From the NCBI GenBank assembly GCA_016192705.1, contig JACPTQ010000014.1:15503-79502 (forward strand): a stretch of 64,000 nt of DNA. Direction: 5' to 3'. Under the pieces are notes generated by a model. That model saw only the letters and a program-made list of their open reading frames with translations. It made no database searches and was not told the DNA's origin. Position numbers and translations under genes: made by a program. The stretch is from Deltaproteobacteria bacterium. GTDB taxonomy: Bacteria > Myxococcota > JACPTQ01. This document shows positions 7,110 to 53,649 of this stretch, piece by piece. Position 1 is the stretch's first letter. Every line of letters begins with the position of its first letter.

Positions 7110-8840
7110 ATGTTGAAACGGGTGGATGCTCGAACCCTTCTGTTGTTGCTCGCGGGTGCCCTCGCGTGCGCGGCGACTCCGGTAGCGCGTCCGCCGGAAG
7201 TGCGCGTCGGAGCGGGCGGGCAACTTCTGGGTCGGCACGCGGTCGTTGCAGCCGACAATGTGGATGCGGCGCGGATTGGGGCGGAAATCCTTGCAGCGGG
7301 CGGAAATGTTGTGGACGCGGCGGTCGCGACGGCGTTCGCGCTTGGGGTTGCGCAGCCTGAGTCGAGCGGAATTGGCGGCGGCGGTTTTCTCGTTTACTTC
7401 CGCAGCGGCGCGAGCCGAGCCGACGTCGTCGATTTTCGCGAGGTGGCGCCCGCACGCGCGCATCGAGACATGTATATGCGAAACGGGAAAGCCGTCGCAG
7501 GCGCATCGGTCGATGGCCCGCTCGCGGTTGGTGTACCGGGCGAAGTTGCGGGGCTCGTTCGCGCACATGCGCGGTTCGGGAAACTGCCGTGGGACAGCGT
7601 TGTGTTGCCCGCAGCACAACTGGCGTCACGTGGGTTTCGCGTGAGCGCGTCGCTCGCCGCTGCGCTCGCGCGGTTTGCCGATCGCGAGTTTCAGTCGAAG
7701 TGGCCGGCGTTTCGTCGCGAGTTTTTTCGCGCCGATGGTTCCGCGTATCGGGCCGGCGATTTCATGCGTCGCGTCGATCTCGGGCGAACGCTTGAACGGA
7801 TCGCGAAGGGTGGGCGCGACGCGTTTTATCGCGGCGAAACCGCGCGCGACATTACTGGAGCCGCCGGTGTGACATCGGGCGGCATTCTAACCGACGCCGA
7901 TTTGATCGCGTACGAACCGAAAGAGCGCGAGGCGATTCGCGGAAGTTACCGCGGGCGCACGGTTTTCACGATGCCACCCCCGTCGTCGGGGGGCGTCGTG
8001 CTCCTTGAGGCGCTCGCCCTCCTTGAGGTGTTCGACTTACCGGCGCTGTTTAGAGCGAACGCGTACCACCACGTGGTCACGCAGGCGCTCATTTTTGGTT
8101 TCGCCGATCGCGCGAATTTGCTTGGCGACGCCGACAGCTCGGATGTTCCGTGGCGCCGGCTCCTCACGGCGGGACACCGCGACAAGCTGCGCGCGGCGTT
8201 TGACCCAACGCGCGCAACTCCGCACCCTGACTGGCCGCGCCCAACGATCAAGCCGCGCGACGACAGCGGCACGAGCCACCTCTCGGTCATGGACGCCGAA
8301 GGGAACGCGGTCGCCCTGACGACGACGATCAACACGACGTTTGGCTCGAAAGTGGTTGTGCCGGGAACCGGCATTTTACTCAACAACCAGATGGACGACT
8401 TTTCGATCCAGCCCGGTGTGCCGAACGCGTATGGTCTCGTCGGAGGCGAAGCGAATGCGGTCAAGGCGGGGCGACGGCCTCTCTCCAGCATGAGCCCGAC
8501 GATTGTCGTTGAGAATGGGCGTGCCGTGATGGCGCTCGGCGGCGCGGGCGGGCCGCGCATTATTTCGGCGACGCTGCAAACTTTATTGAACGCGATCGAT
8601 TTGCGATGGCCGGTCGCGCGCGCGGTTGCGGCGCCGCGGCTCCATCATCAGTGGGTGCCAGACCGCGTAGGATTTGAAGCGGGGGTTGGCGATGACGTCG
8701 TTCGCGCGCTTACATCCCGCGGCCATCGAGCCGAGCGCGAGGATTTCTTCGGCATCGTTCAGATTGCAGCGCGCCGCGCGGACGGGCGGCTCGAAGCGGT
8801 TAGCGATCCGCGCAAGGGCGGCGAGCCCGCGGGTTTCTAA
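7110..8840 (+). CDS. ggt: gamma-glutamyltranspeptidase
   Basis: Signal peptide MLKRVDARTLLLLLAGALACAA; conserved autoprocessing/catalytic Thr region (..DDSGTSHLSVMDAEGNAVALTTTIN) and GGT-like N-terminal region (PESSGIGGGGFLVY). Confidence 0.85.
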   Translation: MLKRVDARTLLLLLAGALACAATPVARPPEVRVGAGGQLLGRHAVVAADNVDAARIGAEILAAGGNVVDAAVATAFALGVAQPESSGIGGGGFLVYFRSGASRADVVDFREVAPARAHRDMYMRNGKAVAGASVDGPLAVGVPGEVAGLVRAHARFGKLPWDSVVLPAAQLASRGFRVSASLAAALARFADREFQSKWPAFRREFFRADGSAYRAGDFMRRVDLGRTLERIAKGGRDAFYRGETARDITGAAGVTSGGILTDADLIAYEPKEREAIRGSYRGRTVFTMPPPSSGGVVLLEALALLEVFDLPALFRANAYHHVVTQALIFGFADRANLLGDADSSDVPWRRLLTAGHRDKLRAAFDPTRATPHPDWPRPTIKPRDDSGTSHLSVMDAEGNAVALTTTINTTFGSKVVVPGTGILLNNQMDDFSIQPGVPNAYGLVGGEANAVKAGRRPLSSMSPTIVVENGRAVMALGGAGGPRIISATLQTLLNAIDLRWPVARAVAAPRLHHQWVPDRVGFEAGVGDDVVRALTSRGHRAEREDFFGIVQIAARRADGRLEAVSDPRKGGEPAGF

Positions 8841-8882
8841 GTCGACTTCTCGGGTTTGTTCGTTGTGGGCCGATGATGGAAC

Positions 8883-9977
8883 TCAGAGCCCCCGCGTCAT
8901 GATGAGATCGCGCAAGCTCGGCGTTTTCGCGTAGGGCGAGTCCAAACAGTCGATGAGGACCGGTTCGTTGGCGCTCACGGCTTTGACGAGGACATCGCCG
9001 CTCATGAGTTCGCGGCACGAAATCTGTCCCTTTTGAAGAGGAACCGCGAGGTAGACGTCGCGTTCCGTGAGGATGTGACCCACGGGAAGGTCGCGCGCGG
9101 CGTAGACCCCTCGAACAAGCGCGTCGAGGTACTTTGTCTCGCGATCCGTAGGAATTCGTTTTTGGTTGCCGGGCGGGCCACACATTTCCTTGACCTTCTT
9201 GAACGACCGGAACCAAACGTCGCACTGCTCAGGGTCGGTGCAGTAAGGCGAAAACGGCTTGTCCTCGGTCCGAATATCAATATGTCGCTCAAACGTTCGC
9301 GCACCCTTGGCGTACGCAATCACGATCGACGACGTCCAGTCCTTGTATTCATGCGTTGACAGGCCAATCGTGAGGTTCGGGTATCGGCCGCGCAGAAAAT
9401 CGATTTGGTTGAGCTCGAGCTCACTGTCTTCAGTCGGGTAAAGTGCGACGCAGTGGTTGAGCGCGAGCGGGATGTTCCGGTTCTCGCAGAACTTGACCAG
9501 ATCGTCGACGTCTTTGACGGACGACCCCCCGGTTGACGCGATGATGGGTTTCCGCGTCCGACCCATCTTTTCGATGAGGACCCAGTCGTTAATATCGGAG
9601 CTCGCGAGCTTCAGGATCTCAACCCCAATTTCGAGGCACGTATCGACCGATTCTTCGTCGAACGCCGTCGCCATCCGAATGCATCCGCTTCGGCGAATGG
9701 CCTCGGCCATCTCGGCGAGATGCTCCCTGGACATTCGCGTTTCCACCGTCTTTTTGATGTATCGAATGTCGTCTCGCCCGCGGAAGCTCTTGTGAACGAA
9801 CGAATCGACATCGCGGACTTGGAGTTTGATCGCCGCCCGAACGTTGTTGTATCGGACGACCTTGCTAAATTCCTGGATTATCCTGAGTCCGCGTTCGAGG
9901 CTTCCCCAGTGGTTATTGGCAAGCTCAAGTACGAAAAGCTCGTCGAAAACAGATTGGTTTACCATGGCGGACGGCAT
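8883..9977 (-). CDS. NeuB-family nonulosonic acid synthase (N-acetylneuraminate / pseudaminic / legionaminic acid synthase-like)
   Basis: N-terminal TIM-barrel motifs (FVLELANNHWGSLE.., TGGSS, ALNHCVALYPTEDSELELNQIDFL, GLSTHE, FERHIDI) and C-terminal SAF-like domain. Hand-sampled GC is about 53-57%, well below neighbours. Confidence 0.8.
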   Translation of the reverse strand: MPSAMVNQSVFDELFVLELANNHWGSLERGLRIIQEFSKVVRYNNVRAAIKLQVRDVDSFVHKSFRGRDDIRYIKKTVETRMSREHLAEMAEAIRRSGCIRMATAFDEESVDTCLEIGVEILKLASSDINDWVLIEKMGRTRKPIIASTGGSSVKDVDDLVKFCENRNIPLALNHCVALYPTEDSELELNQIDFLRGRYPNLTIGLSTHEYKDWTSSIVIAYAKGARTFERHIDIRTEDKPFSPYCTDPEQCDVWFRSFKKVKEMCGPPGNQKRIPTDRETKYLDALVRGVYAARDLPVGHILTERDVYLAVPLQKGQISCRELMSGDVLVKAVSANEPVLIDCLDSPYAKTPSLRDLIMTRGL

Positions 9978-10021
9978 TTTGAGTTGAGGGGTGGAGAATT
10001 GTCAAGTTGACGGTTTCTCCA

Positions 10022-13000
10022 CTAGTTCTCGGTGCCGGGGATTCTCGCGTTGAGCGGCGGCGCTTGGTCGGGGATGTTGTCGACGCGTATCATGCCGCGG
10101 TTGTAGCAGGTGACATAGAGTGAGCGCGCGCGACCCGCGAGCGTCGATTTGTCGAACGTCGCTGCGGCGGCGCGGCAGCCAAAGTCGCGGTCGTCGGCAA
10201 GGCGGCTCCATGTGACGCCATCGAACGTCGCGAAGACGCCGGTGTTGCCAACGGCGAAGCGCGTGCGTGGCTCGTCGGCGACGAAGACCATGTCGGTCAA
10301 GAGCGCCGAGAGTCCGCCCACGCCGTAATCGCGCTCGACCCAGGCTTCTGTCGCGCGCGACTCGGGGTTTCCATACGGGGCGCCGACGAGCGTTGCGAGG
10401 TTTTCGAGCGAAGCGACGCGCGTCCAGGTGCGGCCGCCGTTTTGCGTGATTTTGATCCCGGCGGGGCACGCCCCAGAGCCCGGGTCGTCGATGTAGACCA
10501 TCGCGCTGTTGTACGGGTTTACGAAAAAGCTTGAGACCGCGCACGCTCCGTTGGTGCCAGGGCTCGCCGTGTTAACGACCTTCAAGACGCTCGTCCAGCT
10601 GCCCATGTTCGCGATTCGAAGGAGGTCGCCGCTGCGCGTCCAAGCGTAGTTGACCGGATTCGCGTGCCCGCCGGCTGGTTGGACGATCGCGGTGTCGGCT
10701 GGAAGTCCGCTCGCGACGACACCCCACCGGTTGGTGTAAGGCGTGCTCGGGCAGGCCGCGGTGTTTCGATCGGCGTCGATCACTTGCGCGCGGAAAAGCG
10801 TGACGCCGTCGGGCGCCGGACGGCTGCCATTCGGCTCATAGTAATCGAGCATCACGAGATCCGCGGCAAGCGGGCAGCCGGAGACCGTGCCGGTCGTTGT
10901 GGGAATTTCGGCCGGTAGCGTCTGGATGACGTGGCGATTTCCCCAGCCCCAGATGGGGGGCGCCGACGTTGCGCCATCGGGCGCGGCGACGAACGGCACG
11001 CTGTAGAATCGAACGCCACCGCCGATGTCGCGCGAACCGAAGGCCGGTGTACAGCCGGGTGTGTTCGAGCCGACGCACCACTGGTAAGGAGCGGTCGGGT
11101 AACGGCCGTTCGTGGCGAAGATGCCGAAGCTCGACGATCCGCGGGGGTGATCGACTTGGACGACGCGATCCGCGGCGGCTGGGTGGGCGTCGGCCATGAA
11201 GCGGCCACAGTCGCCGCACGTTCCCGTTTCGCCGGTCCAGTTTGTTGCGGGGTCGGGGTTGGAGGAGCTGTCCCAACTTGTGGGCGGTGAGTCTGGGTTT
11301 ACGTAGAAGTAGTCGTTGTCCTGCGTGCCGGAGTAGTGCGCGGGGCGAGACGCGCCTGGGCGTGAAAGCGTCGCACCGCCCGTCATCCAAAGTGTCCCGA
11401 GACCGCGGCCGGATGCGGGTTTTGTCGCGAAAGGCGAGAGGTTGCAACCGGGTGTGAGGAGGCCGAAGAGCGTTTTCGGGCACGTGCGGATCGTTCCTGC
11501 GGGCGAGGCGTAAAGGCCGCCGTCGTTCGCGACGAACGCGCGGCCCGCGGTGTGGATGAGGCTCGCGTTTGCGCAGGCGGCGCGGCGCGATGCGGCGCAC
11601 CCGGGCTGGATGGCGAACGTTGCGGCGAAATCGTCCGATACGTAGACGTCGTGCGGATCGACGTGGATGAAGAGTGGCGCATCGCCTTCGGCCGGGTTTT
11701 GGCCGTCAAGGCGCGCCCAGCGGCCGAGTTGCGGCGCGGCCGGTGAGTCGATGGGGGGGAGGCCGTCATGAACGTGAACGGTCGTCGCGTCGGCGAAAAA
11801 GAGGTAAAAGCCGGTGCCGCTCGGCTTTCGCGTCGCGAGGATTGCGGGTCGTCCGGAAGGCGTCGCTTGTCCGAAGTAACTCGGCGGCGACGCGAGAGGC
11901 GATGACGCCCATCGAACGACGCGCGCGGCTGGGTCGAAGGACCCCATCCAAAGCCCGGCCTCGCCGCAGCCGAGATTCGCGGACGCGGCGGCTGGGCACT
12001 CGGCTGGCGCACCGCGGGGCGGGTTAACGGGGGCACCGCAGCGCGTCCCTTCAATTTGGCATGCGTCGAAGTACCGTGGGCCGCGCGAGGTGTTGGCGAG
12101 TGTGACGACTATCGTTCCGGGGGTTGTGGGGGGGGTGGCGAGGGCATGGGGGGCACCGGTCCAGCTGCAGCCGTACGCGCGATTGGGACCGAGGCCGAAG
12201 TTCGTCGTGAACGTCGCGCCGCTGTCGATCGAAACGGCGAATCCCGCGGCCCCGCACGCGTAAACGCGATTTCCCGTCGTCGTGCGTTCGGAAACGGCGA
12301 TGTAGTTGAGCGCGGGACGACCGCCGTTGGGGGCGCGCCCGACTTCCGTCCAGTTGCGTCCCCCATTGCGGCTGACGGCGAGCCCGCACGATCCCGCGGC
12401 GAACACGGTGTTCGGGTCGTCGGGTGCAAAGCGAACTTGGGTGACGACGGCGCCCTTACCGCAACTCGGCATGTACGTCGGCATCCACGTACGTCCCGCG
12501 TCGTTCGAAGTCCAGACGCCGCCTGCGTACGACTTGAGGAAGCCGCTGTTCTCAAAGTCGCCGGTCGCGAGGAGAACGGTCGAGCCGTCGGCTGGCGTTG
12601 GTGAAACGGCGATTTCGTTGATCTGCGAAACCCCAGGCGAGAAAAAGGGCGATGTGAGGGGGTGGCGGCACGCGACCTTCGTGTTCGCTTGGCACCAGTT
12701 CGCGCCGTAGTCGTCGGAGCGCCAGAGTCCTGTTCGAAGGCCGGTTGCGTAGAGGCGACGGCCGCTTGGCGAGCCGCTCATCGCGCGGACCGGGCCCGCG
12801 AGTGACTGTCGAGCGGGGTCGCGGGTGCGCGACGCGGGGCCGACGTCGGTGATGGTGATGCGTGGGCGCGGTGACGTCGGGGACGGCTCATGCTCGCGCG
12901 GAAGGGCGACGTGGGTTTGCGGCGTCGGGCGGAGTGCGTCGGTGCTCGCGCGCGTCTCGGGTGAGCCGTCACCACAGGCGACGACGGCGAGAAGAAGCGA

Positions 13001-13042
13001 AATCAGCTTGAGAGAAGCGGTTGTTGGTCGTCGTGATGGCAT
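10022..13042 (-). CDS. large BNR/Asp-box repeat lipoprotein (sialidase / glycosidase-like beta-propeller)
   Basis: Lipoprotein-type signal (MPSRRPTTASLKLISLLLAVVACGDG) and several Asp-box motifs S-x-D-x-G-x-T-W (WRSDDYGANW, TSNDAGRTW, SRNGGRNW, SIDSGATF, TQNGGRTW). Start chosen at the internal ATG preceding the signal peptide. Confidence 0.6.
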   Translation of the reverse strand: MPSRRPTTASLKLISLLLAVVACGDGSPETRASTDALRPTPQTHVALPREHEPSPTSPRPRITITDVGPASRTRDPARQSLAGPVRAMSGSPSGRRLYATGLRTGLWRSDDYGANWCQANTKVACRHPLTSPFFSPGVSQINEIAVSPTPADGSTVLLATGDFENSGFLKSYAGGVWTSNDAGRTWMPTYMPSCGKGAVVTQVRFAPDDPNTVFAAGSCGLAVSRNGGRNWTEVGRAPNGGRPALNYIAVSERTTTGNRVYACGAAGFAVSIDSGATFTTNFGLGPNRAYGCSWTGAPHALATPPTTPGTIVVTLANTSRGPRYFDACQIEGTRCGAPVNPPRGAPAECPAAASANLGCGEAGLWMGSFDPAARVVRWASSPLASPPSYFGQATPSGRPAILATRKPSGTGFYLFFADATTVHVHDGLPPIDSPAAPQLGRWARLDGQNPAEGDAPLFIHVDPHDVYVSDDFAATFAIQPGCAASRRAACANASLIHTAGRAFVANDGGLYASPAGTIRTCPKTLFGLLTPGCNLSPFATKPASGRGLGTLWMTGGATLSRPGASRPAHYSGTQDNDYFYVNPDSPPTSWDSSSNPDPATNWTGETGTCGDCGRFMADAHPAAADRVVQVDHPRGSSSFGIFATNGRYPTAPYQWCVGSNTPGCTPAFGSRDIGGGVRFYSVPFVAAPDGATSAPPIWGWGNRHVIQTLPAEIPTTTGTVSGCPLAADLVMLDYYEPNGSRPAPDGVTLFRAQVIDADRNTAACPSTPYTNRWGVVASGLPADTAIVQPAGGHANPVNYAWTRSGDLLRIANMGSWTSVLKVVNTASPGTNGACAVSSFFVNPYNSAMVYIDDPGSGACPAGIKITQNGGRTWTRVASLENLATLVGAPYGNPESRATEAWVERDYGVGGLSALLTDMVFVADEPRTRFAVGNTGVFATFDGVTWSRLADDRDFGCRAAAATFDKSTLAGRARSLYVTCYNRGMIRVDNIPDQAPPLNARIPGTEN

Positions 13043-13200: not shown

Positions 13201-14223
13201 TCAGGCGCCCACGACGAGCACGACTTTCCCGATGTTTCGCCGTTCTTGAATGTAGCGGTGCGCCAGGGAGGCCTCGCCCATCGGAAAGGTTCGGTCGACG
13301 CGTGGACTCAGCTTGCCGTCGCGCACCCACGCGAGAATCTGGTCGAGGTCACGCGCGAGCGAGTCGGGGTTTTTGATGGCGAAGTGATTCATGTTGATGC
13401 CGAGCACGGCGCGGTTTTGGTTCATGAGCGAAACTGGATGAAACCGGGGCATACCGAGGAGCGTTTTTAATGCGCTCCAGATGCTGCGCCGCTCGCCCGT
13501 GACCATCGACGACACGCCGTACATCACGAGGCGGCCGCCGTGTTTGAGAATGCGCGCGCCCTTTTTGAGCGACGAGCCGCCCTGCGAATCGAGAACGACG
13601 TCGACGCCGACGCCATTTGTGAGGCGCATGACTTCGGCCTCGAAATCTTGCGAGCGGTAATCAATAACGTGCGCAACCCCTTGTCCCACAAGGAAATCGC
13701 GCTTGGCCGCCGACGCCGTGCCGATCACCGTCGCGCCCGCGATTCGACAAAACTCGATCGCCGCAAGCCCGACGCCGCCAGCGGCCGCGTGCACAAGAAC
13801 CGTCTCTCCCGCCTTGACGGTCGTCGCACCGAACAGCCCGCGGTACGCCGTCAGGTAAACCACGGGAATTGACGCCGCTGTCGCATCGTCGCATCCGTCC
13901 GGAATGGCCCGCACCGCGCGTGCATCGGCAACGGCGAGCTCCGCGTAGCCCCCGAACATGACGGGCGCGACCACGCGAATCCCCGCGGGAAGCCCGTGCT
14001 CGGGGAGCGCGTTGACCAGCGTCCCCGCGACCTCGTACCCCAGAATCATCGGGCGTGGCGGCGCATCGGGGTAAAGCCCAAGCCGCGCGACGATGTCCGC
14101 GAAGTTGACGCCCGCGGCGCGGACGCGAATCAGCGCCTGGCCCGCTTTCGGCACGGGATCGGGCGCGTCGGCGACCTCGAGTCGCTCGGGCGGACCGAAC
14201 TTGCGAACGACCACAGCTTTCAT
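13201..14223 (-). CDS. NAD(P)H-dependent quinone oxidoreductase-like protein (MDR superfamily, Zn-independent)
   Basis: MKAVVV..GxxE..V.AAGVNFAD.. and Rossmann AAGGVGLAAIEF motifs; start ATG 14223 overlaps the stop of the upstream UbiA gene (ATGA). Confidence 0.8.
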   Translation of the reverse strand: MKAVVVRKFGPPERLEVADAPDPVPKAGQALIRVRAAGVNFADIVARLGLYPDAPPRPMILGYEVAGTLVNALPEHGLPAGIRVVAPVMFGGYAELAVADARAVRAIPDGCDDATAASIPVVYLTAYRGLFGATTVKAGETVLVHAAAGGVGLAAIEFCRIAGATVIGTASAAKRDFLVGQGVAHVIDYRSQDFEAEVMRLTNGVGVDVVLDSQGGSSLKKGARILKHGGRLVMYGVSSMVTGERRSIWSALKTLLGMPRFHPVSLMNQNRAVLGINMNHFAIKNPDSLARDLDQILAWVRDGKLSPRVDRTFPMGEASLAHRYIQERRNIGKVVLVVGA

Positions 14224-15179
14224 AAATAAATGATGATCGCCGTGGCACCGCCCCATGCGAGCGCCGACAAAACGATATGCGGGTCGGTCAAGACGACGCG
14301 CGTCGGGCTCCCACCTTTGCCGTGTCGGTGCACGAGATAGAGGTAGCGAAAAATCCCATACGCGACGATCGGCAGCGTAAAGACGAGGTTGGGGCCAAGG
14401 CGTTCGACCGTGTGGTGATCGAGCGTGTAGAGCGCATATGAAACGAGCGCGAGCGCGGCGGTGATTGCGGTGAGCTGGTCGAGGAGGCTGACGTCGTATT
14501 CGCCGAGGATTTGGCGAAAGCGAGCCGCCGTGCCGTTCCCCTCGGTGATTTCACCGCGACGTTTAGCGACTGCGAGGAAGAGCGCGAGGAAGATCGTGCA
14601 TGCGAGGAGCCACGACGACGCCGCGACGTCGATCGCGATGGCGCCCGCAAAGACGCGAATGACGAAGCCGAGCGAAACGATAAACACGTCGAGGATAACG
14701 ATCTCTTTGAGCTTGAGCGAATACGCGACATTGAGGACGAGATAAAACGTGACGGCGAGCCCCAGCGGGACCTTGAGCGCGAACGCGCCGCCGAGCGCGG
14801 CAACCGCGAGCAGAAGCGCAATCCAAAGCGCGACCGACGCCGGAACGAGCCCGCTCGCGATCGGGCGCGACGCCTTCTCGGGGTGCTCGCGATCGAAGTC
14901 GCGGTCGATGACGTCGTTCAAAAGGTAGACGGCGCTTGCGGCCGCGCAAAAAGCCGCGAAGGCGAGAGCCGCGGCGACGACGCGCCCCGAGTCGTTGACC
15001 TTCTGCGCGAAAAAGAGCGGCGCAAAGATGAACCCGTTTTTCACCCACTGGGCCGGCCGCATGGCTCGCGCAACGCCCCAGGCGACGCTCAAAACGTCGC
15101 CTCGCGCGCAATCGGGCGATAACGGTCCGCCTGCGGTTGCATCATTTGACTCACGTATGCGCGGAATGGGACTGGCCAT
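14220..15179 (-). CDS. UbiA-family prenyltransferase resembling decaprenyl-phosphate phosphoribosyltransferase
   Basis: Polytopic membrane protein with RPAQWVKNGFIFAPLFFA and the Asp-rich NDVIDRDFDREHPEK motif, as in DPPR-synthase-like UbiA enzymes. Start could be the internal ATG at 15062. Confidence 0.7.
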   Translation of the reverse strand: MASPIPRIRESNDATAGGPLSPDCARGDVLSVAWGVARAMRPAQWVKNGFIFAPLFFAQKVNDSGRVVAAALAFAAFCAAASAVYLLNDVIDRDFDREHPEKASRPIASGLVPASVALWIALLLAVAALGGAFALKVPLGLAVTFYLVLNVAYSLKLKEIVILDVFIVSLGFVIRVFAGAIAIDVAASSWLLACTIFLALFLAVAKRRGEITEGNGTAARFRQILGEYDVSLLDQLTAITAALALVSYALYTLDHHTVERLGPNLVFTLPIVAYGIFRYLYLVHRHGKGGSPTRVVLTDPHIVLSALAWGGATAIIIYL

Positions 15180-18304: not shown

Positions 18305-21001
18305 TCAGCGACAAAGGCTCGCCCAAGTGGTCGAGTTGCCCACACTCCAAACGACGACGACGTTGCCGAAGGGATCGATGGCCATGGACGGAAAGAGCGC
18401 GCTTCCCGCGTCAGGGTTCGGGATGTCAACGGTACCCGCGTCGTCCCATCGGCCGCTACCTTCGGTGTCGAGGATGTACGATGAAATGAGAATGCGCCCC
18501 AATCCAGCGATCGTCTCGCTCCAGAGGATCGTCGCGCGCCCCGTTGGGGAGGTTGCGAGGGAGAGCGACTGCGAGGAAATCCCGGATGCCGTGTGGATTG
18601 TCGTGCTCGGTCCCCATCCCGCATCGATGAATGACGCGGAGCCGACGACTGAATAGTTCGGCGAGAAGAAGTTCGCTATCCATGCCACATGGATGCTGCC
18701 GTTCGGGGTCGCAGCGGCCGCCGTGTCGTAGAGGAGTCCACCGTCGGTCGACGCGACGGGGCCGGCGTCGCCCCAACCCGCGTCGGGTTCGAATCGGTTG
18801 CTTTCCACAAGCTGGCCACCGACATCGCTAAAAAACACCGCGACATTCCCGTCAGGGTCGCCGGCTGCCGAGACGGCGCCCGCGGGCGCAGTATTCCCAT
18901 CGATCCACAGCTCGCCTTGCCATCCCTGGCCAGGAACGTAACGATTTGCCCATATCTGATCGCTTGGGCCCGAGCGCGACCCAATGACCATTGTGTTCCC
19001 GGCTGAATCAACGACCGGTTTTATCACGTTGAGATTGCTCACGGCGGCGTCGGTCAGCGTTACGGGCGCGCTCCATCCAGCGTCGGGGTCAAATCGCGCG
19101 GCGCGCGAAACCTTGGGCATCGCCTTTGCCCAAACCGCGGTCACGCGCCCCCAGCCGTCGACAACGACTTTGGGCGCCTGCCCGTTTTCGAGCGAATCGG
19201 AGATCATGACGGGCGATGCGGTTGTCCAGCCGCCGTCGGGCGCGATTCGGATCGACCACACTTCGTTGAGGGCTCCAAACAGGCGGACGATCGTTGCATA
19301 ACCCGCGGAGTCGATCGCGACGACGGGGTTTCGTTGCACCTCGCCGCTCGGCTCAAGAATCTCCGGCGTTCGCCACCCCGCGGGCCAGCCGTCCGACGCG
19401 ACGTACCGCGCGGTCACGATCTTGTGAGTCCCCCCGGGCTCCGTGAGCTCCCATGCGACGAGCGCGTCGCCGTTTGGTCCCGTTGCGACTTGTGGTGCCG
19501 ACGATACGCTCCCATCGAGCGCGCTCGGCAGCGCAACCGGCGTTTCGCATCGAAGGCTTGACGAGGGCGTCGCGCTAACCGCGGTGCAAAATGGGCCAAC
19601 CCCGGCGTCGTTCGCCGCGCGCACAGCATAGAAGTACGGCTGACCGTTCGTCAGGCCCGTGTCGTTATACAAAGTCGAGGCGGAGGCATCGAGCGATGTG
19701 AACGGTCCGCCGGCATCGACCGCCCGATGGACTTCGTACGATGTTGCACCGATTGTCGCGAGCCACGTGAGCGAGACGCGCGCGTCTGATGGCGTCGCGA
19801 CGAGACCCGCTGGCGCCGCAGGAACCGTGAGCCGCGATGCCTCGGCCGATGCTGGCCCTTCACCTGAGCTGTTTGACGCGCGAACGATGTAGGTGTTCGT
19901 GACGCCCGGTGAACCGTTTGGGTCTGAAAAAACTGGCAAAATCGTGGTCCCGGCGTCAACGAAGACGCCACCATCTGCGTCCCGTCGATAAATGGAATAC
20001 GATGTCGCGGAAACCGATGCGTCCCACGTAAGTCCAACCAACGGATTGCCTCCCGTCGTGACGAGGTCGGTCGGCGCTGGCGGCCGCGTGAGAGCAACGA
20101 CTTCATTTGAGAACAGCCCCTCGCCTCCATCGTTTACGGCCATCACAACATAGAAATAGGAAGATCCCGCGATTAGGCCGGTGTCTGTGAACGTCGGTGC
20201 GCTTGTCGCGCCACGCTGAGCGTAAGGCTCGCCCGACACGATATTTCGGTAGACGACGTAGCTTGTCGCGCTGACCGAGGCGTCCCAAGATAACGCGATC
20301 GATGTATCGCCGCCCGCGGCGATAATTCCGGACGGTGCGGCGGGCCGCGTGAGCACTTGCGCTTCCAACGAATTCGGTCCCGCGCCCGTCGCGTTTTGCG
20401 CGCGCACGACATAGTAGTACCAAGTCCCGGGAGCGAACGATGTGTCCGAAAAGACTGTCGTTGATGCGTCGCCGATGTCGACCGGAGCCGCTGGATAAAC
20501 GCCGCGCGCGACAACGTACGACGTCGCGGACCAAGCCGTCGTCCAATTGATGCTGACCGATGTCGGATTAGCGATGGCCGAAAAAACCGTGGGTGCCGCG
20601 GGGAGCGTGAGGGCACTTGCTTCGACGGAGTTGTCGCTCCGTCCCGCGGGCGAAAGTGCGGCGACGACGTAGTAGTAAGTTGTGCCAGCCGCGAGCCCAG
20701 AGTCGCTGTACTCGGTTTGTGTCGGCGCCGCGATCTGCGTGTAGGGTCCGCCCGCAGCGGTCGCGCGCATGACCGCGTACCCCGTCGCGCTCGAGACGGC
20801 GTTCCACACAAGTTCGACCATGTTGAGGCTTCCCATGGCCGCGAGCCAATTTGGACCCGGCCCCGTTGTTCCTCCATCGGTCGCAATCCCACTGTCCGCG
20901 CCGGTTTGCGAGCCTTCCTTAAAGGGCGAAGTCCGAATACACGACGTGCCGATGGCAGCCATGACGGCCACAACCACGACCGGTCGAACGCGGATCGTCA
21001 T
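18305..21001 (-). CDS. secreted protein with tandem fibronectin type III-like repeats
   Basis: Signal peptide (MTIRVRPVVVVAVMAAIGTSC), at least 5 repeats of about 90 aa with recurring SATSY.V.R / Y.Y.V.A motifs typical of FN3, then a Trp/Gly-rich C-terminal region. Confidence 0.55.
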   Translation of the reverse strand: MTIRVRPVVVVAVMAAIGTSCIRTSPFKEGSQTGADSGIATDGGTTGPGPNWLAAMGSLNMVELVWNAVSSATGYAVMRATAAGGPYTQIAAPTQTEYSDSGLAAGTTYYYVVAALSPAGRSDNSVEASALTLPAAPTVFSAIANPTSVSINWTTAWSATSYVVARGVYPAAPVDIGDASTTVFSDTSFAPGTWYYYVVRAQNATGAGPNSLEAQVLTRPAAPSGIIAAGGDTSIALSWDASVSATSYVVYRNIVSGEPYAQRGATSAPTFTDTGLIAGSSYFYVVMAVNDGGEGLFSNEVVALTRPPAPTDLVTTGGNPLVGLTWDASVSATSYSIYRRDADGGVFVDAGTTILPVFSDPNGSPGVTNTYIVRASNSSGEGPASAEASRLTVPAAPAGLVATPSDARVSLTWLATIGATSYEVHRAVDAGGPFTSLDASASTLYNDTGLTNGQPYFYAVRAANDAGVGPFCTAVSATPSSSLRCETPVALPSALDGSVSSAPQVATGPNGDALVAWELTEPGGTHKIVTARYVASDGWPAGWRTPEILEPSGEVQRNPVVAIDSAGYATIVRLFGALNEVWSIRIAPDGGWTTASPVMISDSLENGQAPKVVVDGWGRVTAVWAKAMPKVSRAARFDPDAGWSAPVTLTDAAVSNLNVIKPVVDSAGNTMVIGSRSGPSDQIWANRYVPGQGWQGELWIDGNTAPAGAVSAAGDPDGNVAVFFSDVGGQLVESNRFEPDAGWGDAGPVASTDGGLLYDTAAAATPNGSIHVAWIANFFSPNYSVVGSASFIDAGWGPSTTIHTASGISSQSLSLATSPTGRATILWSETIAGLGRILISSYILDTEGSGRWDDAGTVDIPNPDAGSALFPSMAIDPFGNVVVVWSVGNSTTWASLCR

Positions 21002-21018
21002 ATCAACATTATATATAG

Positions 21019-21373
21019 CCTGATTCCCGGTTAACGGCCGAGACCTGCGTGGGGCGGTCGGGTTTGGGCTCGCTCCGGCTCGCAAAAGTCCTCGGGTCTG
21101 ACATTAAATGTGAGTCTGCACGAAACGAATCAAACGTCACGAGAACGGCAATCCCACGCCCCATCGGCACCTCATCCCCTGCGGATGCGAGCCTTTGCGT
21201 GCCCAATCTCCGCCCGCCCAATTAGGACTCGGCCGTTTTCCTGGAACGGCGCTTACGATACTTGGGGGTCGATCGATCGTCAGCCGACACCGAGCGGGTG
21301 AACTCTTTGTACCGCCCCCAAGCCCAGACCCCGCCCGTCCCACGCAAATCTTGCCCGTTATCCGGGAATCAGG
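21019..21373. mobile_element. MITE-like interspersed repeat, copy B (two inverted copies of the left module)
   Basis: Left end 21019-21062 and right end 21330-21373 are about 40-bp near-perfect inverted repeats (CCTGATTCCCGGTTAACGGCC.. / ..GCCCGTTATCCGGGAATCAGG). Core shared with copies A and C. Lies between divergent FN3 and OM-barrel genes. Confidence 0.7.
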
Positions 21374-31548: not shown

Positions 31549-32517
31549 TTGAGGCCAACCGAACGTCGGTTGCTGATAACGGGGGCAAATGGCTTTGTTG
31601 GTCGGCATCTTTGTGCCGAGAGCATCAAGCGGGGATGGCAAGTCCGGGCCGCTTTGCGTTCGGCGGCTTCGGTTTGTTCGGGCGCCGAATCGGTCGTTGT
31701 TGGTCAAATTGATGAGCAAACCGACTGGACCAACGCACTTCGCGACGTGGATACGATTATCCACCTTGCCGCACGGGTGCATGTCATGCGCGACGACGCC
31801 GATGATCCGCTTCGCGAGTACCGCCGGTTCAATACGCGCGCCACGGAGCGATTGGCACGTTGCGCGGCCGCGGCGGCCGTGAAGCGGCTTGTGTTCGTGA
31901 GCACAATCAAAGTGAACGGCGAGGAGACGCTCGGTGGGCACCGGTACAAGGAGAGCGATGCGCCCGCTCCGCAGGATTCGTATGGAGTCTCGAAGTGGGA
32001 AGCGGAGGAGGCGATTCGCCGCGTCGCCGAGAAAACGAAACTGCAGGCCGTCATTGTGCGGTCGCCTCTGGCGTACGGCGCAGGCGTGAAGGGTAATTTC
32101 AAACAGATGCTCAACGTGCTGGCGAGAGGGATTCCGCTGCCCTTCGCGTCTGTGCGCAATTTGCGCAGTTTCGTCTCGGTCGGAAATCTGGTCGACGCGC
32201 TCGTTGCTTGTGCGTCACATCCCGCGGCGGCCGGGCAAACCTATCTCTTGAGCGATGGCGATGACATTTCAACCCCCGAGCTCCTTCGTCAGTTGGGCGC
32301 CGCGCTGGGGCATCCGGCTCGCCTGCTTCCCTGCCCTCCCGCTTTGTTGAGGCTCGTGGGTCGTTTGACCGGCCGGTCAGATCAGGTCGAACGCCTGCTC
32401 GGGTCGCTGCAGATCGACAGCGATAAGATCCGCCGCGAACTTCAATGGGCGCCGCCCGTCAACTTGCAAGACGGATTGCGGCAAACGGCGGAGTGGTATC
32501 AAAGGACGGATCCGTGA
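31549..32517 (+). CDS. NAD-dependent sugar epimerase/dehydratase (extended SDR)
   Basis: TGANGFVG Rossmann motif, YxxxK (YGVSKWEAE); TTG start in the ORF track, exact start uncertain. Confidence 0.75.
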   Translation: MRPTERRLLITGANGFVGRHLCAESIKRGWQVRAALRSAASVCSGAESVVVGQIDEQTDWTNALRDVDTIIHLAARVHVMRDDADDPLREYRRFNTRATERLARCAAAAAVKRLVFVSTIKVNGEETLGGHRYKESDAPAPQDSYGVSKWEAEEAIRRVAEKTKLQAVIVRSPLAYGAGVKGNFKQMLNVLARGIPLPFASVRNLRSFVSVGNLVDALVACASHPAAAGQTYLLSDGDDISTPELLRQLGAALGHPARLLPCPPALLRLVGRLTGRSDQVERLLGSLQIDSDKIRRELQWAPPVNLQDGLRQTAEWYQRTDP

Positions 32518-32528
32518 TCCCCTACGCA

Positions 32529-33491
32529 CCCATGGTCGCCGTCGTGGTCACTTTGCTCTTCACCACCGTTATTTTACGCACGGGGTTGGGCAAGAAGGTC
32601 CAAGATGTTCCGAACGCGCGCTCGCTGCATGTCGCCCCCATTCCGCGCATCGGTGGTCTCGGCATCATGGCTGGCCTGTTGTGCGGTTGGGCTTTGATGA
32701 TAACGTCGCTGTCGTGGTGGGTCGTGGTGCCCCTCATCGGGTTGTTCGGTGTTTCGCTGCTCGATGATATGCGCGGGTTGCCAGTCTACGCGCGTTTGCT
32801 CGCGCACCTTGGCGCCGCGGCGATTCTCGTCGGTGGCTCCTTTCTCTTCACCTCCAAAGACGTTGTCATGGCGGTGGCGACGTTTTTGTTTTCGGTGTGG
32901 ATGACGAATCTTTTTAATTTCATGGATGGCTCAGATGGATTGGCCGGCGGAATGGCGCTCTGTGGCTTCGGGCTGTATGGAACGGCCGCTCTGATGAGGC
33001 AGAACGATGCGTTTGCGATGCTGAATTTCACCATCGGCGCGGCGGCCCTCGGGTTTCTGTTCAAGAACTTTCATCCTGCGAAAGTCTTTATGGGCGATGC
33101 GGGCTCGATTCCGCTCGGGTTCCTTGCGGCGGCCATGGGGTTGTGGGGATGGCAAGAGGCGGTTTGGAGCGCCTGGTTCCCGCTGCTCATCTTCTCACCG
33201 TTCATCGTCGATGCCAGTGTGACGTTGCTTAAGCGGGGCGTGCGTGGGGTGAAGATCACGGAGGCGCATCGTGAACATTATTATCAACGTCTGATTCAGA
33301 TGGGCTGGGGACATCGTAACGTTGCGCTGGTCGAGTATGCCGTGATGCTGGGCGTTGGGGTGTCGGCGCTCGCCGCCTTGAATCAAGAGTTTCCGTTGGT
33401 CGTATTGGCCGTGTGGAGCGGCGTTTATGCTCTGCTCATGTTGTCGATTGATGTCGCGTGGAGACGGTTTGAACGGGAGCGGAATGCTTAA
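32529..33491 (+). CDS. polyprenyl-phosphate N-acetylhexosamine-1-phosphate transferase (WecA/WbpL/MraY family)
   Basis: Polytopic membrane protein with NLFNFMDGSDGLAGG and VFMGDAGS motifs. Confidence 0.8.
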   Translation, partial: PMVAVVVTLLFTTVILRTGLGKKVQDVPNARSLHVAPIPRIGGLGIMAGLLCGWALMITSLSWWVVVPLIGLFGVSLLDDMRGLPVYARLLAHLGAAAILVGGSFLFTSKDVVMAVATFLFSVWMTNLFNFMDGSDGLAGGMALCGFGLYGTAALMRQNDAFAMLNFTIGAAALGFLFKNFHPAKVFMGDAGSIPLGFLAAAMGLWGWQEAVWSAWFPLLIFSPFIVDASVTLLKRGVRGVKITEAHREHYYQRLIQMGWGHRNVALVEYAVMLGVGVSALAALNQEFPLVVLAVWSGVYALLMLSIDVAWRRFERERNA

Positions 33492-35340
33492 TTTGAACCG
33501 CTTTACGGTGCTGGCGGTGCTGCACGATTTTCTAGCGGCTGGTGCGGCGTGGGCGGGCGCTTACTTGTTGCGCTTCAATTTTGATCTGCAGTCGCCCTAC
33601 GACAGTGAAATGTTAAATACCGTCCTATGGGTGGCGCCGCTGCAGTCGGTCGTTTTTGTGAGCATGGGCCTTTATCGTGGCATCTGGCGGTACGCAAGCA
33701 TGGCCGACCTGCGACGCATCTTCGTGGCGGTCATGCTGGCTTCCACGTTGATTCCGCTCGTGCTCTTGATGTTTCGCGTCGAAGCCGTTGCGCCGCGGTC
33801 CGTGCTCATCATCGACCCGATCCTCCTTTTGTTGGGAATGGGCGGCGACCGGCTGCTTTACCGACTTTGGAAAGAACGGGCGTTGCTGAGCGACACCAAG
33901 CGGAAGGGAGCGCCGGTCCTGGTTCTTGGCGCTGGACAGTCGGGCGTGGGGTTGTCGAAGGATCTTGCGTTGAGCAGCGAGTGGCATCAGGTCGGGTTCC
34001 TTGATGATGACGACGACAAGCAGGGGCGGATATTGAACGGCATCAAGGTTCTGGGGAAACTGGAGAGTCTTTCATATTGGGCGAAGCGTTTTCGGATTGC
34101 GCAAGTCATCATTGCGATGCCGTCGGCCAACCCCGCGGAACGGAAGCGGGCCATCGATCTCGCGAACACAAGCGGTGTCAAGGCGCTGACTGTGCCGACG
34201 TTCGAAGACCTTTTGAGTGGGCGTGTCTCTGTTTCGAAATTGCGGGCTGTGGAATTGGACGACCTGCTCGGACGAGATCCGGTGAGACTGAACGATGTCG
34301 GGTTGAACGAGCTCTTGACCGACAAGGTCGTGCTGGTCACCGGCGCGGGGGGGTCGATTGGGTCTGAGCTGTGTCGCCAGATCTTGCGGTTTAAGCCCAA
34401 GGAACTCGTGCTGTTTGAAGCCAATGAATTCGCGCTTTACAACATCGAACAGGAGTTTGAGCAGGCTCCTTCGCAATCGGAGCGAACCTATTTGATCGGT
34501 GATGTGCGCGACGAGGTGCGACTTGAGCAGTTGTTCGACGAACATCGACCCAGCGCCGTTTTCCATGCGGCGGCGTACAAACATGTTCCGCTTATGGAGC
34601 GCCACAACGCTTGGCAGGCGGTGCGGAACAATGTGTGGGGCACCTGGCGCGTCGCGAACTGCGCGAAAAGGCACGGCGTCGAGAAGTTTGTGCTCGTGTC
34701 CACGGACAAGGCGGTCAATCCCACGAACGTGATGGGAGCGACAAAGCGAATGGCTGAGATGGTTTGCCAGGGGTTGCAGGAGGAGGGCGGGACGCGGTTC
34801 GTCCTCGTGCGCTTCGGCAATGTGCTTGGCAGCAACGGCAGCGTGATTCCAAAATTTCGCTCCCAGATTGCGAGAGGTGGGCCGGTCACCGTGACGCATC
34901 CCGAAATCACGCGTTTCTTCATGTCGATTCCTGAAGCCGCGCAATTGGTCATGCAAGCCGGTTACATGGGCCGGGGCGGCGAAATATTCGTGCTCGATAT
35001 GGGTGAGCCGGTCAAGATCGTCGATCTCGCGCGCGATCTGATCCGCCTTTCCGGACTGGGCGAGGACGACATCAAGATCGAATTTGTCGGTTTGCGGCCC
35101 GGTGAGAAGCTGTACGAGGAGCTGCTCGCCGACAATGAGCACACGCTCCCGACGCCCCATCCCAAGCTGCGCGTCGCCGAGTCCGGTCAAGTCCAGGTTG
35201 AGTGGATGGCCGAGGTATCGAAATGGCTGGAGCACGAAGTCGAGCGGAGCGACGAAGAAGTTCGGGCGGTGCTGAGCAAATGGATTCCAGAGGCGCGGCT
35301 TGCGATCTATAATCCGAGGCACCATGACAAAGGGAATTGA
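33484..35340 (+). CDS. membrane-anchored UDP-sugar 4,6-dehydratase (PglF/CapD/WbpM family)
   Basis: N-terminal TM helices, two Rossmann-like segments (VLVLGAGQSG.., VLVTGAGGSIGSEL), YxxxK (AAAYKHVPL), C-terminal CapD-like region. ATG 33484 overlaps upstream stop by 8 nt. Confidence 0.8.
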   Translation: MLNLNRFTVLAVLHDFLAAGAAWAGAYLLRFNFDLQSPYDSEMLNTVLWVAPLQSVVFVSMGLYRGIWRYASMADLRRIFVAVMLASTLIPLVLLMFRVEAVAPRSVLIIDPILLLLGMGGDRLLYRLWKERALLSDTKRKGAPVLVLGAGQSGVGLSKDLALSSEWHQVGFLDDDDDKQGRILNGIKVLGKLESLSYWAKRFRIAQVIIAMPSANPAERKRAIDLANTSGVKALTVPTFEDLLSGRVSVSKLRAVELDDLLGRDPVRLNDVGLNELLTDKVVLVTGAGGSIGSELCRQILRFKPKELVLFEANEFALYNIEQEFEQAPSQSERTYLIGDVRDEVRLEQLFDEHRPSAVFHAAAYKHVPLMERHNAWQAVRNNVWGTWRVANCAKRHGVEKFVLVSTDKAVNPTNVMGATKRMAEMVCQGLQEEGGTRFVLVRFGNVLGSNGSVIPKFRSQIARGGPVTVTHPEITRFFMSIPEAAQLVMQAGYMGRGGEIFVLDMGEPVKIVDLARDLIRLSGLGEDDIKIEFVGLRPGEKLYEELLADNEHTLPTPHPKLRVAESGQVQVEWMAEVSKWLEHEVERSDEEVRAVLSKWIPEARLAIYNPRHHDKGN

Positions 35341-47565: not shown

Positions 47566-48486
47566 TCAGGAGCGCGGGTGCAGGCGATCGATGACGGATT
47601 TGAGGCGCTTGCGATCAACATGGGTGTAAATCTGCGTGGTCGCGATGCTTTGATGGCCGAGGAGAAGTTGCACGGAACGGAGGTCGGCGCCGCGTTCGAG
47701 GAGGTGCGTCGCGAAGGAGTGGCGGAGCGTGTGCGGAGAAAACGTCGCGACGATTCCGGCGTCGCGGGCGCGTCGGCGAAGCAATTTCCAAAAACCCTGG
47801 CGCGTCATCGCGCGTCCGCGCGGCGAGAGGAAAAGCGCGCTCTCGGTCGCGCGTCGGACGAATCGTGGTCGCGAGAGCTTAAGGTAGGCGCGAAGGGCGT
47901 CGAGCGCGATTTCGCCGACGGGCACGACGCGTTCCTTGCCGCCTTTCCCGCGGCAGCGCACGATGCCGCGCGTTTCGTCGACGCTGTTCATGGTGAGCGA
48001 CACGAGTTCGCTGACGCGGAGCCCGGTCGCGTAAAGGAGTTCGAGCATCGCGCGGTCGCGCAACGTCGCGCGGGTTTCCTTGGGCGGCGGCGCGAGGAGG
48101 CGTTCGACGTCATCGAGCGAAAGTGCATGCGGCAAGCGGCGCCCGGCTGGTGGAACCGCGACTTCGCGCGCGGGATCGTCGGTTGCGCCGAGCTCGTCGT
48201 GCGCATAGCGGTGAAGTGTGCGAACAGCCGAGAGGGCCCGCGCAATTGAGCGAAGGCCAAGCCCCCGGTGAGTGAGCGATGACACGAACCGGCGAACGTC
48301 GTCTTCAGTGGCCGCGGTCAGCGATGTTCGTCCCGACTTGTCGAGCGTCGCGCGATACGCGTCGAGGTCTGCGGCGTACGCGGTTACGGTGCGCGGCGAC
48401 AAGTTGCGTTCGAGTCGAAGGTGATCGAGGAATGCCGCGAGCTCGTCGATAAGCGCCACGTGAGCGACGATAGCCGGCCCAGGTGT
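47566..48486 (-). CDS. tyrosine recombinase, XerC/XerD family
   Basis: C-terminal catalytic region ..HTLRHSFATHLLERGADLRSVQLLLGHQSIATTQIYTHV.. with R..HxxR..Y residues; N-terminal core-binding domain begins near ..ALIDELAAFLDHLRLERNLSPRT. Upstream 75 track codons probably not translated. Confidence 0.8.
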   Translation of the reverse strand, partial: TPGPAIVAHVALIDELAAFLDHLRLERNLSPRTVTAYAADLDAYRATLDKSGRTSLTAATEDDVRRFVSSLTHRGLGLRSIARALSAVRTLHRYAHDELGATDDPAREVAVPPAGRRLPHALSLDDVERLLAPPPKETRATLRDRAMLELLYATGLRVSELVSLTMNSVDETRGIVRCRGKGGKERVVPVGEIALDALRAYLKLSRPRFVRRATESALFLSPRGRAMTRQGFWKLLRRRARDAGIVATFSPHTLRHSFATHLLERGADLRSVQLLLGHQSIATTQIYTHVDRKRLKSVIDRLHPRS

Positions 48487-48520
48487 TGATCGCAAAGAAG
48501 TTGCGCTGCCATGCGCGATG

Positions 48521-49378
48521 TTACATCTCGACGGTTTCGCGGATTGGACGTCCGGGAGCTTCGTTGCGAGTTTCAGGTCGTCCGCAAGGTTCAGCGTGAC
48601 CTGGTTGAAGGGGATGGTCAGTCCGTTCTCGTTGCAGATCCGGACGAGCGCCGTATGGACGTCCCGCAGGAGGTCCTCGCGTATCCCGGCGCACCGTCCG
48701 TCCGCGTCCAAAACGATTTCCAGGTCCAGGGAACTGCTGGCGGCCTTCGGCGCTCTCGAACACGACGAGCCATCGCCAAATCGGAGCGGGGTAAGGGTAG
48801 GCGCCGATGCGGAGGCGCGATTCAGTGGGCAACCCGTCGAGTGCGAGTTTCAGCGCGCGTCGCCGAAAGTGGGCTTTCGCGAGCCAGTACGCGACGACAA
48901 CGGCCCACGTGATCCCCGAAAGGACCACGCGTTCAGCTGGGAATTCGAGCGACAACACGATCCCCGCGAGGAAGAGGAACGGGAGAAAGGGGTCCATGAA
49001 GGCGACCAAATCCCACGAGACAAAGCGGCGAGACCAGCCGCGAAAGACTTGGGCGCCGTGGGAGTTTGTAATGTCGAGCAGGCTGTGGAGGAGGACGCCG
49101 GCGAGACCCGTGAGAAAGAGCGGCAAAAAACGGCTGTCGGGATAAATCGCCGTGAGCGTGGCCGCGACGGCAGCGGCCGTGAGCGGCATCCCGAAAACGG
49201 AGTGCGTAAAGGTTCGGTGGGCGCGGAGCGCGGCGGCGCCGCCTTTGGCTTTTGAGAAGAGATCGAGGTCAGAGAACGTCGCTGACAGGATGATGTTGAT
49301 TGTGGCGTGGGGGTCGGCCGTGTCGAGACCGAGGAACGACAGGCTTGCGCCGGCGAGAGCGTGGCTGACGGTATCCAC
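48521..49378 (-). CDS. membrane-bound metal-dependent hydrolase (DUF457 / YdjM-like)
   Basis: MDTVSHALAGASLSF..TFTHSVFGMPL..LHSLLDITNSHGAQVF pattern of His/Asp ligands in a small polytopic membrane protein; the last ~70 codons are low-complexity run-on. Confidence 0.55.
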   Translation of the reverse strand: MDTVSHALAGASLSFLGLDTADPHATINIILSATFSDLDLFSKAKGGAAALRAHRTFTHSVFGMPLTAAAVAATLTAIYPDSRFLPLFLTGLAGVLLHSLLDITNSHGAQVFRGWSRRFVSWDLVAFMDPFLPFLFLAGIVLSLEFPAERVVLSGITWAVVVAYWLAKAHFRRRALKLALDGLPTESRLRIGAYPYPAPIWRWLVVFESAEGRQQFPGPGNRFGRGRTVRRDTRGPPAGRPYGARPDLQRERTDHPLQPGHAEPCGRPETRNEAPGRPIRETVEM

Positions 49379-49565: not shown

Positions 49566-49907
49566 ATGAAAAAGGTGTCGGGGGATAGCGTGATTAATCG
49601 GTTTTTTGACCAGGTTCGGCAGAGCTGGGCCGATGCGGGTGAGTTCGCCCAATCGGTTAAGGAGCGTATTTGGAGTGGGCCGGAGGCGAGGCGCGTTCGT
49701 GCCCTCGCGATTCCGGCCGCGCCGAGCGCGACGCTTGTCGACAAGGCCAAGGCGTCGGTTGCGCTGACGCTCATCGGTGTTTTTGCTGGAATCGCGATTG
49801 CGTCGCTGTCGACCCTCGTGACGTCGCTGATTTTTATTTACTTGTTGGTTACGCGTGTCCTCGGGATTCGCATCGACCTCGACCCTGAGGCGATGCCCAA
49901 GTTCTGA
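49566..49907 (+). CDS. small hypothetical membrane protein (single C-terminal TM helix)
   Basis: 113-codon ORF with hydrophobic C-terminal segment ALTLIGVFAGIAIASLSTLVTSLIFIYLLV; no obvious SD. Confidence 0.35.
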   Translation: MKKVSGDSVINRFFDQVRQSWADAGEFAQSVKERIWSGPEARRVRALAIPAAPSATLVDKAKASVALTLIGVFAGIAIASLSTLVTSLIFIYLLVTRVLGIRIDLDPEAMPKF

Positions 49908-49920
49908 GACGGAGGCTAGG

Positions 49921-52900: not shown

Positions 52901-53142
52901 ACGACGACGGCGGCGGCGGTGGAAAGGGCGGAAACGGCGGTAGCGGTGGCAATGGCGGTTATGGCGCGGGCGGTGGCGGTGGGCCGTCGTACGGGCTCTT
53001 CCGCGCGAACGCGGCGTCGGCGCCGACGTTGTCCGGGAACAGTTGGGTCAAGGGGATCGCTGGAGCCGGAGGCTATGGGCCGGCGTCGAACAGTGGCGCG
53101 ACCGGCGTCGCGTCGAGCTGTAACGCCGGAACCTGCAATTAG
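49921..53142 (+). CDS. giant cysteine-rich repeat lipoprotein (MopE-like metal-binding motif, at least 10 tandem NCGxCG..CC.G.C repeats, Gly-rich C-terminus)
   Basis: SD GGAGG 5 nt upstream; lipoprotein signal [20 protein letters not shown]; motif [41 protein letters not shown]; about ten ~30-aa repeats; C-terminal region of poly-Gly runs. Confidence 0.65.
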
Positions 53143-53599: not shown

Positions 53600-53649
53600 C
53601 TTTGAGCAACGTGCTCGCCATCCTCTAAGAGGAGGGTGGAGACTCGGGA

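Follow-up and report, generated by a model that had tools for sequence, protein, structure and literature searches.

The low GC content of the NeuB-like gene is a by-product of the sequence of the protein that it encodes, an intact member of a highly conserved, functionally uncharacterised '3G8R-like' subfamily of NeuB-like proteins, and the gene itself probably entered long ago as a single-gene insertion whose composition has since equilibrated. The account as a whole, of a conserved NeuB-like enzyme whose amino acids set its GC content and which entered its present site long ago as a single gene, from either a foreign source or elsewhere in the same genome, seems to us likely to be right. 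The GC outlier is real but ordinary; what is new is a member of a known superfamily that falls in an uncharacterised subfamily. Throughout, the window refers to the whole 64-kb stretch of DNA that was analysed.

The open reading frame extends upstream to an ATG at position 9977 (8883..9977 on the minus strand, 364 amino acids). The deposited protein (P0001), which is 100% identical to the NeuB-like protein and 360 residues long, starts at the second ATG, M5, in agreement with the N-termini of the homologues in an alignment of 23 sequences (alignment A1), and this start is used in Table 1. The gene is flanked upstream by a gene for a Sortilin/BNR-Asp-box-like putative lipoprotein (the BNR gene) and downstream by a gene for a gamma-glutamyltransferase (GGT). 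The BNR protein is 100% identical to the deposited P0121, of 1006 residues, and 81% identical to P0122; it gives matches to Sortilin-Vps10 and BNR_6, both of which lie under the Pfam cutoffs. Its reading frame has a first start at 13330 that overlaps a quinone-oxidoreductase gene, the deposited start being at about 13042, and the N-terminus of the protein bears a lipobox-like VVAC motif. The GGT is assigned through PF01019 (E 3e-164) and TIGR00066 (468 bits, cutoff 357.85), and the deposited protein (P0125) has 576 residues. A role for the BNR protein as a sialidase is not demonstrated, its matches being of the Sortilin/Asp-box type and below the cutoffs. On the same grounds, and also since BNR homologues are found elsewhere without a NeuB-like neighbour, a functional 'sialic acid' pairing of the NeuB-like and BNR proteins was rejected.

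Table 1. Positions in the window of the NeuB-like gene, its surroundings and the other features discussed.
Feature	Position	Strand	Details
Gamma-glutamyltransferase (GGT), downstream flank	7110..8840	+	Convergent with the NeuB-like gene
Spacer between the convergent stops of the NeuB-like gene and GGT	8841..8882		42 nt
NeuB-like CDS	8883..9965	−	360 aa; TIM-barrel NeuB domain and C-terminal SAF domain
Spacer from the NeuB-like start to the BNR stop	9966..10021	−	56 nt
Sigma-70-like site	10005..9976		TTGACA-18-CAAAAT
Hairpin	9991..10022	−
Sortilin/BNR-Asp-box-like putative lipoprotein (BNR), upstream flank	10022..13042	−	1006 aa as deposited
UbiA/decaprenyl-phosphate phosphoribosyltransferase-like gene	14220..15179	−	4.2 kb from the NeuB-like gene
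fn3-domain protein	18305..21085	−	926 aa
Polysaccharide genes	31549..35340	+	SDR epimerase, GT4 WecA-like transferase, PglF/CapD-like dehydratase
Tyrosine recombinase	47566..48711	−	N-terminal SAM-like domain (XerC/D or phage-integrase type)
Protein with STIG1-like repeats	49855..53142	+	1095 aa
Collagen-triple-helix-repeat ORF (PF01391)	53650..54831	+	Frame call uncertain; overlapped by an alternative ORF, 53152..53874 (−)

The NeuB-like protein scores above the Pfam cutoffs for both of its domains, NeuB (PF03102, 121.4 bits, E 5.6e-35, cutoff 22.1) and SAF (PF08666, 22.9 bits, E 1.2e-4, cutoff 21). From what is known of the family, the enzyme would be a metal-dependent TIM barrel that forms a 3-deoxy-2-ulosonic acid by condensing phosphoenolpyruvate (PEP) and either an aldehyde or an aldose, and the C-terminal SAF domain would complete the active site. 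His205 and His228 align with the two metal-binding histidines of NeuB from N. meningitidis (4ipi/1xuu), which we take to be His215 and His236 in the numbering of 1XUZ, and neither varies in alignment A1. The window copy keeps all 130 invariant columns of this alignment. At the 151 columns of an 89-sequence alignment that are at least 95% conserved it deviates at four, P101A, A135G, F160C and S174A, where the median for the aligned sequences is 1 and the maximum 8; these substitutions could indicate a slightly relaxed or altered function. Over its full length the protein is 64–79% identical to more than 100 members of the subfamily from more than 12 phyla, the taxa including Acidobacteriota, Rhodocyclaceae, Microcystis, Myxococcota, Planctomycetota, Chloroflexia, Gemmatimonadales, Elusimicrobia, Patescibacteria, Syntrophomonas and Actinomycetota.

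The closest solved relative is PDB 3G8R (E 2.2e-68, 234 bits, residues 7–322), a structural-genomics entry named 'probable spore coat polysaccharide biosynthesis protein E'. The two proteins share the NeuB TIM barrel with a C-terminal SAF-type domain and, in the alignment, the motifs ELANNH, KLQ, SSD, HCV.YP, STHE and FE(R/K)H. In the same alignment 3G8R is clearly more distant than the members at 64–79% identity, and it gives a fold rather than a function; in the literature found it is cited only as a modelling template, with no published function. Our literature search likewise returned no description of the subfamily or its gene cassette and no characterised member. NeuB/SiaC of N. meningitidis (1XUU/1XUZ; E 7e-19 to 1xuu) has the same PF03102 and SAF domains and, as above, the two Mn-binding histidines, and homology to it suggests a chemistry in which PEP and an aldose would yield a 3-deoxy-2-ulosonic acid. 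In contrast to NeuB itself, the window protein scores only 108.6 bits with the NeuB equivalog model TIGR03569, far under the cutoff of 399.65, and the partners of its relatives are a ThDP enzyme and a GT2 of the polyprenyl-phosphate type and not NeuA or NeuC. No NeuA (CMP-sugar synthetase) or NeuC (UDP-GlcNAc 2-epimerase) domain was found among the 40 ORFs of the window that were scanned, which are those of roughly 150 residues or more. PseI (PDB 8H2C, E 8e-17) is alike in fold and superfamily, but the score with its equivalog model TIGR03586 is 107.1 bits, below the cutoff of 340.25, and Pse pathway genes are absent nearby.

Composition was compared over 36 curated genes of at least 200 residues in the window, obtained with an iterated codon model and Pfam-guided curation. 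The NeuB-like gene has the lowest GC content of these, about 56.6% (56.6–56.7%), where the others have 62.5 ± 2.4% (z = −2.4). As about 0.3 genes would be expected below this z among 36, it is a mild outlier and not an extreme one. The lowest of the 64 1-kb bins is 9001–10000, with a GC content of 55.7%, and just 0.3% of gene-sized sliding windows are equally low, every one of them overlapping the gene; the borders of the dip match those of the gene. The earlier note, which had called this NeuB-family gene a low-GC outlier, was therefore right about the direction, although its three hand-counted values were each 3.5–5 points off: it gave about 53% for the gene, about 62% for the BNR gene, which has 67.0–67.3%, and 65–70% for the window, which has 62.6%.

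The deficit lies wholly at codon positions 1 and 2. GC1 is 58.5% and GC2 39.3%, and GC3, at 72.2%, ranks 16th of the 36 genes, the mean for the window being 72.7 ± 3.9%. When the amino-acid sequence of each gene was recoded with synonymous usage pooled from the remaining 35, the predicted GC content of the NeuB-like gene was 56.1%, compared with the observed 56.7%, and for the whole set of genes 72% of the variance in GC between genes is accounted for by amino-acid content alone. The GC content is low because the conserved protein uses few GC-rich amino acids: Gly, Ala, Arg and Pro together make up 23.9% of its residues, the lowest value of the 36 (mean 34.8 ± 4.7%) and close to the family mean of 23.6%, and Phe, Tyr, Met, Ile, Asn and Lys make up 25.0%, among the highest of the 36, versus 18.4%. 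The per-codon synonymous log-likelihood is as expected (z = +0.19), and the RSCU distance ranks 21st of 36, or 12th of 20 among length-matched genes. The atypical GC3 or synonymous usage of a recently transferred gene is absent. Since the synonymous sites are typical of the host in both GC3 and codon preference, the composition carries no signal of foreign origin, and the case for transfer that had been built on composition fails by the measure proposed with it, namely whether GC3 and codon usage leave the range of the neighbouring genes.

The same pattern is seen across the subfamily. Over 82 family loci, GC1 and GC2 of the gene barely track the GC content of the host (slopes 0.46 and 0.16) and GC3 follows it (slope 1.98). 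The window copy sits on the family line, with a GC1 of 0.586 versus 0.587 predicted and a GC2 of 0.389 versus 0.376. As a control that separates a constrained family from a cassette that is foreign everywhere, the 39 loci with a host GC content of at least 58% were considered on their own. In these the subfamily gene is 3.7 points under the rest of its locus (lower in 90% of the loci) and 5.1 points under the adjacent ThDP-enzyme partner (lower in 100%). The gap to the partner comes wholly from positions 1 and 2 (−8.0 points, p = 3e-22), the difference in GC3 being +0.9 and not significant. Low GC is thus characteristic of the family, the same deficit at these positions being present in 39 loci from high-GC hosts. 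Compared with its flanks the window copy is 6.2 points lower, a deficit that exceeds the family average by about 1 SD. The subfamily, poor in Gly, Ala, Arg and Pro and rich in Phe, Tyr, Met, Ile, Asn and Lys, is too constrained to drift GC-rich at positions 1 and 2. Composition neither supports nor opposes transfer here; all that it excludes is that the gene came recently from a donor of different codon usage. More generally, a dip of 6 points in GC over the length of one gene, in a genome of high GC, can come entirely from a constrained, GC-poor amino-acid sequence, and controls by codon position and across the family tell such constrained composition from foreign origin.

Evidence of another kind comes from the site itself. 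The only related contig found, L169, is a metagenome contig of 7.5 kb with 65% GC that was reached through the BNR neighbour. It carries orthologues of the BNR gene (81% identical in amino acids, 78% in nucleotides) and of GGT (75% and 74%) in the same convergent arrangement; the BNR gene of the window is native, and it is syntenic with L169. In L169 the stop codons of the two genes lie 9 nt apart with no NeuB-like gene, whereas 1181 nt separate them in the window. The extra sequence consists of the 56-nt spacer, the NeuB-like ORF, the 42-nt spacer and seven additional C-terminal GGT codons, which sit at the boundary of the indel. The NeuB-like gene is thus a clean single-gene insertion or deletion between BNR and GGT. 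At four-fold synonymous sites the BNR and GGT genes of the window and their L169 orthologues are only 51–54% identical, and so the lineages parted long enough ago for the codons of an inserted gene to have reached full equilibrium. Scanning metagenomes with the BNR protein gave no match, and with GGT neither a metagenome scan nor a protein search gave a non-self relative closer than 47–52%. The second-best BNR match (P0123) is 33% identical and not syntenic, and was rejected as an outgroup for the junction. In a separate difference between the two contigs, an internal segment of about 155 residues of the BNR protein (about 11930–12394) is missing from its 81%-identical orthologue (L169 76–2367).

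A search for direct or inverted repeats flanking the NeuB-like site gave only short matches at chance level; the 7-nt CCGAGAA occurs on both sides of the gene, with a chance probability that we estimate at about 0.15. Neither mobile-element genes nor insertion scars were found at the site, the window is devoid of tRNA genes, inspection of the 42-nt downstream spacer by eye showed nothing like an integron attC site, and no homology to the nearest homologues (L001–L003) extends past the ends of the ORF. The only recombinase seen in the window is a tyrosine recombinase 38 kb from the gene.

A recent horizontal acquisition from a lower-GC donor, of which the low GC would be the signature, is consistent with the position of the gene as the most GC-poor in the window, with its absence from the syntenic site in L169 and with a family that is spread over many phyla, which are mixed at depth in a neighbour-joining (NJ) tree. 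In this tree the family-level clades fit taxonomy and the deep nodes are unsupported, and no donor was drawn from it. Such an acquisition is nevertheless very improbable, given that GC3, RSCU and the synonymous log-likelihood are all host-typical, that the deficit affects positions 1 and 2 alone and is the one that the family shows in high-GC hosts, and that the site is without a mobile-element gene, tRNA or repeat. The nearest homologue also argues against it: the tree pairs the window copy with L001, which is just 79% identical and comes from a genome of 70% GC, its gene having a GC3 of 0.97 and its ThDP partner being present. In having the lowest GC of its region and a presence that differs from a related genome, the gene does resemble atypical acquired genes of the Lawrence–Ochman type. 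In contrast to these, it is atypical only at non-synonymous positions, in a way intrinsic to the family, its synonymous sites are native, and its borders have no integrase, tRNA or repeat.

An artefact of assembly or binning, in which the gene was stitched into the contig from another organism, might be suspected from the source, a metagenome-assembled genome, and from a GC dip that coincides with the borders of the gene. The dip is explained by amino-acid content, however, codon usage and GC3 match the contig, and a chimeric join would not fit an intact ORF and its short spacers so exactly into the gap between two intact convergent genes, which together make an artefact extremely improbable.

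The genomic context of the related genes bears on the direction of the event. The NeuB-like gene is adjoined by that of an ALS-like ThDP enzyme (about 604 residues) in 82 of the 88 related loci, mostly less than 100 bp upstream, and with the split copy in L057 the number of loci with an adjacent ThDP enzyme rises to 83. Four of the five loci without the partner are contigs of less than 3.5 kb, and the sole other long locus with a detached NeuB-like gene is L012, from Myxococcales. A PgfS/ArnC-like GT2 is present in 65 of the 88 loci, an SDR epimerase/dehydratase in 50, a methyltransferase in 39 and a HAD phosphatase in 26. The window copy lacks the adjacent ThDP enzyme and GT2 of its subfamily; no homologue of the ThDP enzyme, the HAD phosphatase or the GT2 was found anywhere in the 64 kb (tblastn at E ≤ 1e-10 and Pfam scans). 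Its position is derived for the subfamily.

Presence of the gene differs from the one syntenic comparator, L169, which on its own is compatible with either direction. Were the gene ancestral at the site and cleanly deleted in the L169 lineage, with no insertion in the lineage of the window since the two split, its native codon usage would fit a long residence and the lack of insertion scars would follow. Such a deletion would have had to remove one gene and both spacers exactly and to leave the convergent genes intact with 9 nt between them, and no NeuB-like gene neighbours the BNR homologues elsewhere. The position would also still call for an earlier insertion, being atypical for a family in which nearly all loci have the ThDP partner. 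For these reasons we regard the deletion as unlikely. Since the gene is without its usual cassette, it must have been inserted here at some point, and this would be so even with a later loss in L169. We thus favour an old single-gene insertion as the event that most likely put the NeuB-like gene between the convergent BNR and GGT genes, and which would have detached it from its usual cassette of ThDP enzyme and glycosyltransferase. The two lines of evidence diverge, in that composition is uninformative and synteny and cassette context point to an old single-gene insertion or deletion. Of the horizontal acquisition proposed in the earlier note, the argument from GC is lost, the deficit being predicted by the amino acids, and an insertion among native genes is supported independently by the L169 junction and the missing cassette.

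The 56-nt spacer upstream of the gene, which is wholly absent from L169, contains a sigma-70-like site that matches at 10 of 12 positions (one found versus 0.3 expected) and would start transcription at the annotated ATG. Its −35 hexamer is overlapped by a hairpin (minimum free energy −19 kcal/mol, z −3.35, equalled by 2 of 200 shuffles) that begins with the final base of the BNR stop codon. The 42-nt spacer has no significant structure (z −1.26), and no terminator-like site was found in either spacer. Judged from these sequence features, independent and possibly leaderless expression of the NeuB-like gene is conceivable, and the inserted gene may have carried its own promoter-like spacer. It had been suggested that the gene is embedded in a native operon; it does stand among native genes, but an operon is not borne out, given the hairpin and promoter-like site in the 56-nt gap and the BNR homologues that lack a NeuB-like neighbour.

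The cassette in the related loci is the only part of these findings with some potential for new biochemistry. It was found in Acidobacteriota, Rhodocyclaceae, Microcystis, Planctomycetota, Myxococcota and others, and its ThDP enzyme falls under every NCBIfam cutoff. A candidate route would run from condensation with PEP through dephosphorylation to a ThDP-dependent decarboxylation or carboligation. Tentatively, the NeuB-like protein, the ThDP enzyme and the PgfS/ArnC-like polyprenyl-phosphate glycosyltransferase might together make an undescribed lipid-carrier sugar derived from an ulosonic acid, with the solitary window copy a detached enzyme recruited to a different role, a reading that we hold to be possible rather than probable. 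The NeuB-like gene in this way flags a widespread, uncharacterised ThDP-enzyme/NeuB-like/GT2 cassette that may merit biochemical study, the window itself holding only a detached copy.

Several further observations were made on the cassettes. Across the related loci (L001–L088) they consist of the ThDP enzyme, the NeuB-like gene and the GT2, sometimes with HAD, GtrA, FkbM or class-I methyltransferase, or SDR genes, and they span more than 12 phyla, including complete genomes of Microcystis aeruginosa (L005 and L006). In L002 the cassette is extended by an FGGY kinase and a sugar-phosphate cyclase related to AroB. The window has a UbiA/decaprenyl-phosphate phosphoribosyltransferase-like gene in the vicinity of the NeuB-like gene (Table 1), and homologues of it (32–39% identity) lie 4–9 kb from the NeuB-like gene in 18 Terriglobales loci, for example L019, L024, L027, L028 and L030. 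These 18 loci form one clade, and the proximity of UbiA may be a coincidence.

Elsewhere in the window, the polysaccharide genes have a lower GC content, about 58%, and their codon usage deviates (z −3.7 to −4.4); by the measure of GC3 and codon usage set out in the earlier note, their composition makes a stronger case for transfer than that of the NeuB-like gene. The strongest synonymous-codon outlier is the collagen-triple-helix-repeat ORF, with a GC3 of 0.59 (z −6.5), and the fn3-domain protein also shows deviant synonymous usage (z −5.0). STIG1-like domains are unusual in a bacterium. The 1095-residue protein contains seven such cysteine-rich repeats (PF04885, 8.5e-39), and its gene has a very high GC2 of 0.67.
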